From a virus (Duplodnaviria > Heunggongvirae > Uroviricota > Caudoviricetes): a DNA stretch of 4,789 nucleotides. Positions 845 through 4,789 of this stretch are shown here, piece by piece. The notes under the pieces were generated by a model, which was given only the letters and a program-made list of their open reading frames with translations, was not told where the DNA came from and made no database searches. The translations under genes and the position numbers were made by a program. The stretch lies in the IMG/VR virus record IMGVR_UViG_2585427785_000003; one strand, given 5' to 3'. Positions within the stretch are counted from its first letter, which is position 1. Each line of letters opens with the position of its first letter.

Positions 845-923
845 AGTCTTATCTGCAGCATCAGTACTCCTTTAAGATTGAAAATCCTGCCAATAAGCAC
901 GAGCGTCCTCATCATAAATATCT

Positions 924-927
<4 letters not shown>
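845..927 (+). pseudogene. 3' remnant of a lambdoid class I holin (S) gene, interrupted by the IS insertion
   Basis: The frame ending in TGA at 925-927 (ATGA overlap with the endolysin start) translates ...SYLQHQYSFKIENPANKHERPHHKYL-stop. This resembles the charged C-terminal tail of lambda-type holins (recalled lambda S C-terminus ...[22 protein letters not shown]). The frame is cut by the IS end at 844, so the N-terminal transmembrane part is missing from this side of the IS. Confidence 0.5.
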
Positions 928-1951
<1,024 letters not shown>

Positions 1952-2133
1952 GGTAATATTAAATCGGAACATTTACATCGCGGAATGTAAAATTTAAATA
2001 AAAAGGACTCTTCCATGAGCCAAAATTCCTGAAATCTTAAGGGTAAGATAAAAGGTCTTAATCAGAATGACACGTTTTATTAATAAATAAAGCTATTCTT
2101 TCATTGCTGTGTTTTTCTTTACAAAAGTAATCC

Positions 2134-2162
2134 TTGCTATGGGTGGTTAATCATGCGTTAAT
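2134..2162 (+). promoter_or_regulatory. Candidate sigma70 promoter of the cold-shock gene (cspA-type): -35 TTGCTA 2134-2139, 17-bp spacer, extended -10 TGcGTTAAT 2154-2162; predicted TSS near 2169
   Basis: The hexamers and spacing are seen directly. The architecture parallels the cspA promoter as I recall it (TTGCAT, 17 bp, TGgCTTAAT), with an AT-rich UP-like tract upstream (2075-2130). The predicted TSS gives a 5' UTR of about 145 nt, in the range reported for cspA-family genes. A second candidate is the extended -10 TGtTATAAT at 2202-2210. Confidence 0.45.
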
Positions 2163-2168
2163 GGTGTT

Positions 2169-2313
2169 CTGGTTTGTTACAAATTTATCTGAAGCAGTCA
2201 TTGTTATAATTTTATTATTTGTACCTCTTGAGATTTCCTTGTTGGTTTTTCTCTCTGATATTTTTTTTCGGACCATTCTGCCCAAGGGCTAATTTCTTCA
2301 AAAGGTAATAATT
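2169..2313 (+). promoter_or_regulatory. cspA-type long 5' UTR with cold-box-like start (GGTTTGTTACAAATT...) and the conserved AAGG Shine-Dalgarno context
   Basis: The UTR begins ...GGTTTGTTACAAATTTATCTGAAGCAGTC, which aligns with the recalled cspA leader start ACGGTTTGACGTACAGACCATTAAAGCAGTG. The sequence immediately before the ATG, AAAAGGTAATAATTATG, resembles the cspA AAAGGTAATACACTATG. Confidence 0.45.
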
Positions 2314-2526
2314 ATGTCTAACAAAATGACTGGTTTAGTGAAATGGTTTAACCCTGAAAAAGGTTTTGGTTTCATCACGCCGAAAGATGGCAGCAAAGAT
2401 GTGTTTGTCCATTTCTCAGCAATTCAGAGCAACGATTTCAAAACATTAACTGAGAATCAGGAAGTTGAATTTGGTATTGAGAACGGACCTAAAGGTCCTG
2501 CCGCTGTTCATGTAGTGGCGCTTTGA
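2314..2526 (+). CDS. cspI: CspA-family cold-shock protein (CspI-like), 70 aa
   Basis: The ORF translation [70 protein letters not shown] contains the RNP1-like KGFGFI and RNP2-like VFVHF motifs of the cold-shock domain. It matches the prophage-borne CspI rather than CspA/B/G as I recall them. It has a strong SD (AAGG) and a long structured leader. Confidence 0.9.
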
Positions 2527-2536
2527 GGTAGACAAT

Positions 2537-2725
2537 ATTACAAACCATATTCACTTTAGATGCCCGTGTTGTCATGGTTCCCAGTATAGAACATCATCTT
2601 TTGATGTTTCTGACATGAATCCTTTCGGGGCAAAATGTATCTTTTGTAAATCAATGATGATTACATTTGATAATATTTCACAATACTTAAATGCCAGCCG
2701 TCTGTCGTTGGATTTAAAAAAGTGA
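2537..2725 (+). CDS. Candidate small Cys-rich (zinc-ribbon-like) protein; start codon uncertain (no in-frame ATG/GTG/TTG upstream of the first Cys pair; possible ATT start at 2537 with GAGG SD, or ATG at 2615 giving a 36-aa product)
   Basis: The frame is open from 2516 to the stop at 2723-2725 and reads ...ITNHIHFRCPCCHGSQYRTSSFDVSDMNPFGAKCIFCKSMMITFDNISQYLNASRLSLDLKK. The two Cys clusters (CPCC and CIFC) are about 25 residues apart. The ORF ends 5 nt before a strong intrinsic terminator. A GAGG sits 8 nt upstream of the ATT at 2537. A K-12 Qin prophage gene of this position (ynfN) is recalled from memory only; its sequence is not recalled. Confidence 0.3.
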   Translation: MTNHIHFRCPCCHGSQYRTSSFDVSDMNPFGAKCIFCKSMMITFDNISQYLNASRLSLDLKK

Positions 2726-2730
2726 AAATG

Positions 2731-2756
2731 AAGGCTCCTTCGGGAGCTTTTTTGCT
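2731..2756 (+). terminator. Rho-independent terminator: 8-bp stem (2731-2738 / 2743-2750) with UUCG tetraloop followed by a T-run
   Basis: AAGGCTCC-TTCG-GGAGCTTT followed by TTTGC, giving a GC-rich stem, a stable UUCG tetraloop and a run of 6 or more T. It lies directly after the small ORF and the cspI transcription unit. Confidence 0.7.
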
Positions 2757-2797
2757 TGGTGTCTATTCGATGGATACTCACATACTACGGTAACATC

Positions 2798-3028
2798 ATG
2801 AAAAAAATCATAGTTTTTTTTAACTCTGAACCAGCAGTGGTAGTGCCAGCGATGACTGGAGTTAACACCATCATGCGTGAATATCCAAATGGCGAAAAAA
2901 CACACCTTACTGTAATGGCCGCAGGGTTTCCATCTCTGACCGGAGATCATAAAGTCATTTATGTAGCCGCGGATCGACATGTTACTTCAGAAGAAATTCT
3001 GGAAGCAGCAATAAGGCTCTTGAGTTGA
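2798..3028 (+). CDS. Hypothetical 76-aa protein, YmcE-like (partner gene found upstream of gnsA/gnsB-type genes); alternative starts TTG 2756 / GTG 2759
   Basis: The ORF-track frame from the ATG at 2798 reads MKKIIVFFNSEPAVVVPAMTGVNTIMREYPNGEKTHLTVMAAGFPSLTGDHKVIYVAADRHVTSEEILEAAIRLLS. It lies immediately upstream of a gnsB-like gene, as ymcE does for gnsA in K-12 (recalled synteny and length, not sequence-verified). No good SD precedes the ATG, and the longer TTG/GTG-initiated version would overlap the upstream terminator. Confidence 0.45.
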   Translation: MKKIIVFFNSEPAVVVPAMTGVNTIMREYPNGEKTHLTVMAAGFPSLTGDHKVIYVAADRHVTSEEILEAAIRLLS

Positions 3029-3121
3029 TTTGATGCTATTGCATTGATAATTCAGGAAAATTCTCTTTGTCTGTTTGTGTAAAATTTAGACTATCGTATG
3101 TTGATTATTGCGATGTTTCAT

Positions 3122-3150
3122 CTTATCTTTTACACGTTTGCACCATATAA
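3122..3150 (+). promoter_or_regulatory. Candidate sigma70 promoter for the gnsB-like gene: perfect -10 TATAAT 3145-3150 with weak -35 TTATCT 3122-3127 (17-bp spacer)
   Basis: A consensus TATAAT lies about 50 bp upstream of the gnsB start codon and the -35 is weak. This is a sequence-only prediction. Confidence 0.35.
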
Positions 3151-3199
3151 TCGACTTACTGTGTAACTGGAAAGTCATAACAGACTAAAAGAGGAAATG

Positions 3200-3373
3200 A
3201 TGAATATTGAAAACTTAAAAACAAAAGCAGAAGCAGATATTTCTGAATATATAACAAAAAAAATTATTGAACTTAAGAAAAAGACCGGGAAAGAAGTTAC
3301 CAGTATTCAGTTTACCGCACGGGAAAAAATGACGGGTCTTGAAAGCTATGATGTCAAGATTAATTTAATCTGA
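3200..3373 (+). CDS. gnsB: GnsA/GnsB-family small protein (57 aa)
   Basis: The translation MNIENLKTKAEADISEYITKKIIELKKKTGKEVTSIQFTAREKMTGLESYDVKINLI closely resembles the recalled K-12 GnsA/GnsB sequences (MNIEELKKQAE...FTAREKMTGLESYDVKIKIM). A GAGG SD lies 5 nt upstream of the ATG at 3200; an ATG at 3197 is also in frame. It is missing from the ORF track because it is under 60 aa. Confidence 0.8.
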   Translation: MNIENLKTKAEADISEYITKKIIELKKKTGKEVTSIQFTAREKMTGLESYDVKINLI

Positions 3374-3400
3374 TGTATTCAATAATAAAATTTATCCATA

Positions 3401-3423
3401 AACCTCGTTTTTACGGGGTTTTG
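3401..3423 (+). terminator. Probable intrinsic terminator after the gnsB-like gene (stem 3401-3408 / 3413-3420, TTTT loop, followed by TTTTG)
   Basis: AACCTCGT-TTTT-ACGGGGTT then TTGTTAT; the stem includes one G-U pair and the U-tract is partly inside the stem, so it is of moderate strength. Confidence 0.4.
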
Positions 3424-3524
3424 TTATATTTGAATGGTTCCGAATATCTAAATCACAATTGTTGATGGTTTTTATTAAACCAATGCAGTCCGGCTCAGGA
3501 GTGAGAGAAGCCGGACGTTATGGT

Positions 3525-3935
3525 TTAGCGTGGTAAGATCTGTGTAGTTTTCTGGATGCTTTCAGTAAATAGTAATGAATTATCAAAGGTATAGTAATAT
3601 CTTTTTTGTTCGTGGATATTTGTAACCCACCGAAAAACTCCTGCTTTAGCAAGGTTTCTTCTGTATTCCTGAAATGTGATCTCTCTGGATTTCAGCTTAT
3701 TAGAGGTCGTTTCTATAAGATGCCTATCCTTTGAAAATTTGACAGACACAATGTTTTTTAGGCCCTTTAATAACACTGTATTATCATTTTTTAATACAAT
3801 ATGAACATTCTCTGTGGCTAAATAGTAAATGTAATGTGAGACATTGTGACGTTTTAGCTCAGAATAAAACCATTGATAGTTTAAATCGTTTCGAACTTTA
3901 TCAAATATTTGTTTAAAAATGACTACCTGATCCAT
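3525..3935 (-). CDS. ydfO: DUF1398-family protein (YdfO/YbcV-like), 136 aa from the second ATG; the ORF track's longer version starts at 3950
   Basis: The minus-strand ORF reads [145 protein letters not shown] (3948-3943) lies 7 nt upstream of the ATG at 3935, whereas the ATG at 3950 has no SD. The family assignment is from memory of prophage YdfO/YbcV proteins and their position next to gnsB in Qin-like prophages. Confidence 0.7.
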
Positions 3936-3992
3936 AGATAAACCTTCCATGTGATATGAGGGGGCGTAGTCTGCACGATTATCTAAATTGCT

Positions 3993-4226
3993 TCAATCTG
4001 GTCTGACCTGTTTTCTGAGCAATTCAGTAATGTCACTCTTTTCTTTGTTTGCTTCAGAAGAAACTCTTTTTTCTGAGCACAGTCTCCGGCGGCAGGCTTC
4101 AATGACCCAGGCTGAGAAATTCCCGGCCCCTTTTTGCTCAAGAGCGATGTTAATTTGTTCAATCATTTGGTTAGGAAAGCGGATGTTGCGGGTTGTTGTT
4201 CTGCGGGTTCTGTTCTTCGTTGACAT
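3993..4226 (-). CDS. Small ribbon-helix-helix-like (Arc/Mnt/CopG-type) putative DNA-binding protein, 77 aa; homolog of the conserved ORF found at the right end of phage lambda next to cos
   Basis: The ORF-track protein is MSTKNRTRRTTTRNIRFPNQMIEQINIALEQKGAGNFSAWVIEACRRRL.... It shows a basic N-terminal arm, a beta-strand-like RNIRFP, helix A, a G-x-G-N-x-S turn and helix B, which fits the RHH pattern (compare Arc ...QFNLRWPREVLDLVRKVAEENGRSVNSEIYQRVMESF). A nearly identical ORF is recalled in the lambda right arm on the complementary strand. Confidence 0.65.
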   Translation of the reverse strand: MSTKNRTRRTTTRNIRFPNQMIEQINIALEQKGAGNFSAWVIEACRRRLCSEKRVSSEANKEKSDITELLRKQVRPD

Positions 4227-4374
4227 GAGGTTGCCCCGTATTCAGTGTCGCTGATTTGTATTGTCTGAAGTTGTTTTTACGTTAAGTTGATGCAGATCAA
4301 TTAATACGATACCTGCGTCATAATTGATTATTTGACGTGGTTTGATGGCCTCCACGCACGTTGTGATATGTAGA

Positions 4375-4389
4375 TGATAATCATTATCA
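4375..4389. repeat. Perfect 15-bp palindrome TGATAATCATTATCA, nested in a larger inverted repeat GTGATA...TATCAC (4363-4390); Fur-box-like
   Basis: Seen directly. The 19-mer 4370-4388, GTAGATGATAATCATTATC, matches the Fur-box consensus GATAATGATAATCATTATC at 16 of 19 positions. Confidence 0.6.
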
Positions 4390-4394
4390 CTTTA

Positions 4395-4600
4395 CGGGTC
4401 CTTTCCGGTGATCCGACAGGTTACGGGGCGGCGACCTCGCGGGTTTTCGCTATTTATGAAAATTTTCCGGTTTAAGGTGTTTCCGTTCTTCTTCGTCGTA
4501 ACTTAATGTTTTTATTTAAAATACCCCCTGAAAAGAAAGGAAACGACAGGTGCTGAAAGCGGGCTTTTTGGCCTTTGTCGTTTCCTTTCTCTGTTTTTGT
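4395..4600. other. Lambda-type cohesive end site (cos): cosQ region about 4400-4424, cosN 12-nt overhang sequence GGGCGGCGACCT at 4425-4436, and cosB with terminase-binding R-sites R3 (4479-4490), R2 (4534-4549, inverted) and R1 (4576-4590)
   Basis: 4401-4436 reads TTTCCGGTGATCCGACAGGTTACG followed by GGGCGGCGACCT, which is the lambda right end joined to the lambda left cohesive end as I recall them. Downstream there are three copies of the CGTTTCC(G/T)TTCT R-element, one inverted, and the nu1 ATG is exactly 191 nt after the first cosN base, as in lambda. Confidence 0.85.
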
Positions 4601-4614
4601 CCGTGGAATGAACA

Positions 4615-4789
4615 ATGGAAGTCAACAAAAAGCAGCTGGCTGACATTTTCGGTGCGAGTATCCGTACCATTCAGAACTGGCAGGAACAGGGAATGCCCGT
4701 TCTGCGAGGCGGTGGCAAGGGTAATGAGGTGCTTTATGATTCTGCCGCCGTCATAAAATGGTATGCCGAAAGGGATGCTGAAATTGAGA
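4615..4789 (+). CDS. nu1: Terminase small subunit Nu1 (DNA-packaging protein), N-terminal 58 codons; continues beyond the window
   Basis: The translation MEVNKKQLADIFGASIRTIQNWQEQGMPVLRGGGKGNEVLYDSAAVIKWYAERDAEIE matches the lambda Nu1 N-terminus (winged-helix DNA-binding domain). It is absent from the ORF track because there is no stop within the window; the overlapping track ORF 4550-4756 is in another frame. Confidence 0.9.
   Translation, partial: MEVNKKQLADIFGASIRTIQNWQEQGMPVLRGGGKGNEVLYDSAAVIKWYAERDAEIE

Follow-up and report, generated by a model that had tools for sequence, protein, structure and literature searches.

A Fur-box array beside cosQ in the Qin prophage and in other lambdoid cos sites

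Classical Fur boxes of E. coli, among them those of fhuF, fepA-fes, entC and cirA, consist of a 19-bp array of overlapping 7-1-7 units of the GATAATGATAATCATTATC type. They overlap strong sigma-70 promoters, and their genes are 30- to 500-fold derepressed in delta-fur strains. Fur operators are also carried by phages. The Fur-regulated stx1 promoter of Stx1-converting lambdoid phages lies in late-region accessory DNA, and its operator overlaps the defined promoter of a defined accessory gene. A host protein at a fixed place in cos likewise has a precedent in IHF site I1 of lambda cosB, which serves an abundant host protein, is conserved among lambda-like phages and has a demonstrated role in the initiation of packaging.

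The closest described sites are the nohA (Qin) and nohB/nohD (DLP12) Fur sites of K-12. The nohB site was found by a Fur titration assay (Stojiljkovic et al. 1994, as cited in PMC2189734), and a nohA fragment was selected in vivo for Fur binding (Vassinova and Kozyrev 2000, as cited in the same paper). In the entries that Chen et al. (2007, PMC2189734) give for these loci, the nohA site is placed at 1634624/1634630, position -233, with two sites spaced 6 bp from each other that score 22.3 and 12.6 bits; nohA is listed with three sites in 25 bp. A nohA oligonucleotide was shifted by 150 nM Fur in their electrophoretic mobility shift assay (EMSA). Their entry for the DLP12 copy, nohB, is at 579824, with 25.3 bits and four sites in 28 bp. 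Later texts count nohB among the Fur-regulated genes. In the papers searched, the literature on nohA and nohB treats a site of the host 'nohA promoter' and draws no link to cosQ or to phage lambda.

The stretch of DNA analyzed here, 4,789 nucleotides in all and referred to as the window, represents the right-hand end of a lambdoid prophage, namely E. coli Qin. In K-12 coordinates its palindrome falls on the nohA/nohB positions of Chen et al. (2007). Since the K-12 Qin sequence is identical and the center of the box lies 233 bp upstream of the nu1/nohA ATG, the box in the window is the published nohA site; the locus is the same and does not differ in sequence from the Qin copy. The palindrome is thus a strong Fur-binding site, known since 1994-2007 from cryptic prophages of E. 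coli under the name 'nohB/nohA' Fur site. A first-pass annotation of the window had listed an iron-responsive operator among its options, and this option is borne out by the gel shift and the in vivo selection published for the identical K-12 sequence. Its remark that no role had been ascribed to the sequence was mistaken, as the nohA/nohB Fur sites were published in 1994, 2000 and 2007. The Fur titration and EMSA that it proposed as checks are already in print, with positive outcomes on identical or homologous sites.

The site and its binding of Fur are therefore not new. The fixed association with cosQ, lambda itself included, may be a new observation: the literature search, outside which key subscription papers lay, returned no paper with both Fur and cosQ and none linking Fur to lambdoid cos. 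A sequence that ranks among the strongest E. coli Fur sites (22-25 bits, Chen et al. 2007) thereby belongs to the cos region of lambda itself.

The locus has the array architecture of the classical Fur boxes. Unlike them, it overlaps no good promoter, and the response of its neighbors in K-12 to the loss of fur is absent or inconsistent. It also differs from the stx1 operator in having no defined promoter and in having neighbors that vary. Compared with I1, whose function is demonstrated, a packaging role of the Fur array is putative, and cos sites without the array exist.

The locus and its Fur-box match

From position 845 to 4789 the window matches the Qin prophage of many E. coli chromosomes at 100% identity, and the annotation of the matching copies names rrrQ, rzpQ, ydfO, ynfO and ynfN. 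Phage lambda is ~98% identical to the window from about 4064 rightwards, and its right end (lambda bp 48502) corresponds to position 4425. To the left of 845, where identity to the other Qin copies begins, an insertion element stands in for the essQ/ydfR side of Qin. The features are as follows.

1-844: IS3-family element (IS1203-like), with orfA at 464-790 on the minus strand
924-1457: R lysozyme gene
1454-1951: Rz gene
Between Rz and ydfO: a cspI-like gene and a gnsB-like gene
3525-3950, minus strand: ydfO (DUF1398; K-12 annotation), downstream of ynfO
3993-4226, minus strand: ynfO (YlcI/YnfO family, DUF3950; Pfam DUF3950 at 1.5e-20, NCBIfam YlcI_YnfO_N, K-12 annotation), called the ribbon-helix-helix (RHH) gene in the first-pass annotation
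4296-4308 and 4316-4328: imperfect inverted repeat, ATCAATTAATACG / CGTCATAATTGAT, with 13-nt arms that are 85% complementary and 7 nt apart, between ynfO and the Fur array
4363-4390: nested palindrome GTGATATGTAGATGATAATCATTATCAC, the span originally noted, with complementary outer arms GTGATA (4363-4368) and TATCAC (4385-4390)
4369-4395: whole conserved Fur array, made up of TG..AA, the 15-mer and a T-run, with overlapping 7-1-7 units 6 bp apart
4370-4388, plus strand: match to the 19-bp Fur consensus GATAATGATAATCATTATC, 16/19 with three mismatches
4375-4389: core 7-1-7 Fur motif TGATAATCATTATCA, 14/14 to TGATAATnATTATCA, equal to lambda bp 48452-48466
4376-4394, minus strand: second, overlapping match to the 19-bp Fur consensus, 15/19
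4396-4402, plus strand: cosQ, GGGTCCT, the packaging-termination subsite; the curated genomes of phages 434 and 21 have a 7-bp cosQ feature at the corresponding position, and the sequence is invariant in all families
4403-4419, plus strand: 17-bp spacer between cosQ and cosN
4420-4441, plus strand: cosN nicking region, with the 12-nt cohesive end GGGCGGCGACCT at 4426-4437 (phi80 sticky-end annotation)
4442-4614, plus strand: cosB region, 98% identical to lambda, with a 15-nt inverted repeat at 4534-4548/4576-4590
4615-4789, plus strand: 5' part of nu1/nohA, the terminase small-subunit gene, with its ATG at 4615

The center of the box (4382) lies 156 bp to the right of the ynfO ATG (4226, minus strand) and 233 bp to the left of the nu1/nohA ATG (4615). 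The box had been described as lying between the cos site and the minus-strand RHH gene, and with cosQ at 4396-4402 and the ynfO ATG at 4226 this placement is correct. cosQ sits 6 bp to the right of the 7-1-7 repeat. The segment of 96 bp that covers both the box and cosN was found in 3795 of 5426 complete E. coli genomes (about 70%).

Positions 4363-4390 are base-for-base identical to K-12 Qin and to phage lambda (lambda bp 48440-48467), while the DLP12 copy deviates from the box at the central base and a few flanking bases. The perfect 15-bp palindrome reported earlier is present at its assigned place; strictly it is not a palindrome, TGATAATCATTATCA being a 7-1-7 repeat with perfectly complementary 7-bp arms around a central C. 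The earlier count of 16 matches to the 19-bp Fur-box consensus was reproduced at 4370-4388. No other site in the window comes within three mismatches of GATAATGATAATCATTATC, and 0.01 such sites are expected from 200 dinucleotide shuffles. Perfect 7-1-7 palindromes are not rare by themselves (0.3 expected per window, three present), so it is the Fur match that carries the significance. The other two are GAAAAACCGTTTTTC at 1102-1116 within rrrQ and AGATTAATTTAATCT at 3357-3371 at the end of the gnsB-like gene, and neither resembles a Fur box. Next to the core repeat, T4369 and G4370 belong to a second 7-1-7 unit offset by 6 bp.

Conservation across lambdoid cos sites

Sites of the form cosQ-N17-cosN were gathered from IMG/VR, one genome per species, and GenBank phages. 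When these were grouped by the stretch that extends from 29 to 150 bp left of cosQ, 45 families resulted, whose left flanks are unrelated. The 7-1-7 motif was scored when it ended 3-7 bp before cosQ; a score of at least 11/14 is expected by chance at about 0.003 per 10-position window. Matches to lambda-, DLP12- or phi80-type cos were also seen in unrelated assemblies (Oceanobacillus, Shewanella, Raphidiopsis, Archangium, Nanosynbacter and others; L127-L130, L134, L135, L138, L141-L144). Most of them sit on contigs of low coverage or at the end of a contig, which fits contamination by a lambda spike-in, a cosmid or E. coli, and such contaminant-like matches (lambda, phi80, cosmid) were excluded from the biological counts.

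The Fur array is kept 3-7 bp from cosQ in 29 of the 45 families, at 5 bp in 19 of 28. Scores are bimodal: 29 families reach at least 10/14 (28 of them at least 11/14), the other 16 score 7/14 or lower, and decayed intermediates are absent. Carriers of the box include lambda, 434, 21/CFT073, phi80, N15, mEp237, PhiR12_1 and Citrobacter and Trabulsiella prophages. In a logo of the 29 families, T-5, G-4, A-2, A-1 and the T-run after the box are conserved, although these positions played no part in selecting the families. They reproduce second and third Fur units offset by 6 bp, which is the classic Fur-box architecture. Conservation has an abrupt left edge: information content is close to zero by 6-7 bp to the left of the core. 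Because the logo reproduces the 6-bp-offset units and the information vanishes beyond them, a Fur array accounts for all of the conserved block to the left of cosQ and makes up the left edge of the conserved cos module. In the family of lambda type, two of 15 core columns vary, compared with 11 of 17 in the cosQ-cosN spacer.

The box varies in nature without losing its Fur-like character, as CGATAACnATTATCG of N15 and Trabulsiella shows. Both N15 and the Trabulsiella prophage (L146) have a symmetric C..G where the lambda box has its outer T..A. In N15, the TAA stop codon of gene 59 lies within the Fur-like box CGATAACTATTATCG (L151, 1484-1498).

The left neighbors vary in identity and orientation. 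N15 and phi80 have a plus-strand gene that terminates right at the box or within it, phage 21 and CFT073 have an unrelated small ORF, and in PhiR12_1 no gene is closer than Rz, at a distance of 340 bp. The constant partners are only cosQ, cosN and terS on the right. An operator for leftward accessory genes misfits some carriers, since in N15 and phi80 the gene to the left is on the plus strand and runs up to or into the box. Some box-bearing phages have accessory genes with an iron theme: a protein with a TonB C-terminal domain (Pfam TonB_C, 7e-13) is encoded near the right end of phage 21 (L152, 442-768) and of the CFT073 prophage (L005, 455-781), and an ORF annotated 'putative Fur-regulated protein' lies near the right end of phi80 (L150, 353-583). 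No additional Fur box was found beside the TonB_C genes or the phi80 ORF.

Sites without the box include the cos1/cos2 sites of PICIs and those of several prophages with Nu1/gpA-type terminases and an identical cosQ-cosN (L037, L147, L148, L131). Among the box-less families, the two with the most members correspond to the inverted cos1/cos2 pair of PICIs, elements that lambda and phi80 terminase package (PMC6739421). In IMG/VR, 11 loci (L159, L170, L171, L179, L190-L192, L196, L200, L202, L221) have a pair of inverted cosQ-cosN matches that lie 560-900 bp from each other; their spacer is TCCTGGAATTATGGCCC, and they have no Fur box. They match the cos1/cos2 arrangement described for PICI EcCICFT073. 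Displaced Fur motifs above background were not found within 150 bp in the box-less families. Terminator-like hairpins up to 110 bp left of cosQ occur in five of 16 box-less families (for example L156, L239, L219, L182) versus two of 29 box-bearing ones. This trend is too weak for the terminator to be taken as a complement of the absent box; it hints faintly that an element limiting read-through is commonly placed just left of cosQ.

Fur occupancy and expression around the box

Inspection of existing Fur ChIP data, another check proposed in the first-pass annotation, gave a divided answer. In CFT073, the Fur ChIP-exo peak P53 (1424699-1424711; data of PMC10164565, region sequence inspected) lies on TGATAATTATTCTCG. 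In this phage-21-type cos, 5 bp separate the homologous box from GGGTCCT on its right, and a 21-type terS follows about 230 bp downstream. The peak is seen only under iron-replete conditions, as is occupancy of the classical Fur boxes. In contrast, the Fur ChIP-exo list of MG1655 has no peak at Qin or DLP12, which could be a repeat-mapping problem. A ChIP-seq summit of MG1655 does fall on the box, at 1634625; the antibody was anti-FNR, and the authors class the operon as 'repressed by Fur'.

A scan of both strands near the box for sigma-70 promoters detected none with at least 9/12 matches that overlap it. The best relaxed candidate (8/12) is weak and directed leftward, with a poor -35, AGGACC, in cosQ, a 17-bp spacer and -10 TATCAT (4379-4374) inside the box. 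Expression in K-12 delta-fur strains shows no derepression of the flanking genes: nohA (-0.29) and ydfO (-0.05) do not change significantly in MG1655, and in W3110 ynfO (-5.1) and ydfO (-2.0), together with ybcV and ylcI, go down, not up.

The Fur regulon of CFT073 does list the genes flanking the box, C_RS07340 (+2.33 log2) and C_RS07370 (+2.13 log2), which rise about 4-5-fold in delta-fur. Late and packaging genes (tail, portal, terminase, HNH) of unrelated prophages rise by about 2-2.6 log2 in delta-fur derivatives of strains W, 042 and Sakai. The ChIP-exo peaks of Gao 2023 in the prophage packaging regions of these strains (L276, Sakai Sp10; L277, W; L278, 042) were considered as further candidates and rejected, being neither Fur boxes nor lambda-type cos sites. 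Because unrelated prophage genes rise similarly at peaks that are not Fur boxes, the rise in CFT073 is possibly indirect, and the apparent derepression may reflect a higher rate of spontaneous prophage induction. The data suggest that delta-fur strains undergo more spontaneous prophage induction, which would confound the Fur 'regulons' of lysogens.

Function of the array and competing explanations

Our main reading, held with a probability of about 0.8, is that positions 4369-4395 are a functional high-affinity Fur-binding operator. Whether its role is transcriptional we consider an even call. The interpretation that fits best is that the array makes the cos-proximal region iron-responsive, either by occlusion of a weak promoter or as a roadblock to transcription across cos; the transcript controlled and the phage's gain are what we infer. 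Mechanistically, Fe2+-bound Fur would occupy an array of overlapping 7-1-7 units (GATAAT-like hexamers) centered on the perfect repeat at 4375-4389, with two or more dimers predicted to cover roughly 4365-4400, up to or over cosQ. On iron scarcity, Fur would depart from the array. In a lysogen or cryptic prophage, the intergenic region next to cos would in this way become iron-responsive. Bound Fur might block weak local initiation, such as that from the leftward candidate with its -10 element in the box, or might instead stop transcription from reading through cos. Control would then extend to ynfO-ydfO on the left, to nohA/nu1 on the right, or to both.

If Fur does influence either the function of cos or the transcription that crosses it, an iron-sensing host factor joins a well-studied packaging system. 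Multicopy cos vectors and replicating lambda also carry a strong Fur titrator.

Functions tied more closely to cos were weighed next to the transcriptional one. It is unlikely, on our analysis, that iron-loaded Fur on a conserved accessory element of lambda-type cos influences the termination of packaging, occludes prophage cos or insulates the terminase/head operon from read-through. Such an accessory element would explain why the array is kept beside cosQ in lambda, 434, 21, phi80 and N15 despite differing leftward DNA.

The main rival to our reading, though a decidedly doubtful one, holds that the array is an accessory cos subsite, at which host Fur positioned 5-6 bp before cosQ acts on packaging or end handling, not on transcription. 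By analogy with IHF at I1, Fur could be a roadblock that slows the terminase motor before cosQ, could occlude prophage cosQ or could mark the DNA end injected first. The spacing of 3-7 bp kept behind unrelated left flanks speaks for such a subsite, as does the abrupt stop of conservation at the left edge of the array, as at the boundary of a functional module. The proposal gains attraction from cosQ, cosN and terS being the sole constant neighbors, from a core that varies far less than the cosQ-cosN spacer and from the lack of a good overlapping promoter. Against it, common descent with few indels also explains the conserved spacing, and saturation mutagenesis by Wieczorek and Feiss in 2001 is said to have defined cosQ as 7 bp only. 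Not all functional cos sites have the array at a fixed position (29 of 45 families do). As the PICI cos sites and several Nu1/gpA phages lack the box, it is not required for cos function. The packaging-related structure suggested in the first-pass annotation fares accordingly: a DNA hairpin or cruciform finds no support (single-strand folding of 4355-4400 gives -4.1 kcal/mol, z = -1.09, not significant) and the box is dispensable for cos function, though it may have an auxiliary role linked to cos.

It is very improbable that the site has no selected phage function and is an AT-rich palindrome that happens to bind Fur, carried along with the linked cos module. Such a passenger would be in keeping with the absent or inconsistent expression effects in K-12 delta-fur, the missing MG1655 ChIP-exo peak and the 16 families without the box. 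It is contradicted by the bimodal scores lacking intermediates, set against a chance level of about 0.003, by the conservation of Fur-specific positions beyond the core and by natural variants that still look like Fur boxes.

The remaining proposal, that the palindrome is an autoregulatory operator of the adjacent putative RHH protein YnfO/YlcI, can hardly be maintained: the box does lie upstream of the ynfO ATG, on the correct side, and the basic N-terminus predicted for YnfO precedes two helices, as an RHH fold would allow, but the box matches the Fur consensus and binds Fur, the single-sequence AlphaFold model of this candidate fold has low confidence (pLDDT 56) and no PDB relative was found, and the box does not track ynfO/ylcI, being kept next to other neighbors in N15, phi80, 21/CFT073, mEp237, PhiR12_1 and the Citrobacter and Trabulsiella prophages. 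The inverted repeat at 4296-4328, which lies nearer to ynfO, is a better-placed candidate for an operator at which YnfO acts, though it could also be a regulatory site of some other kind.
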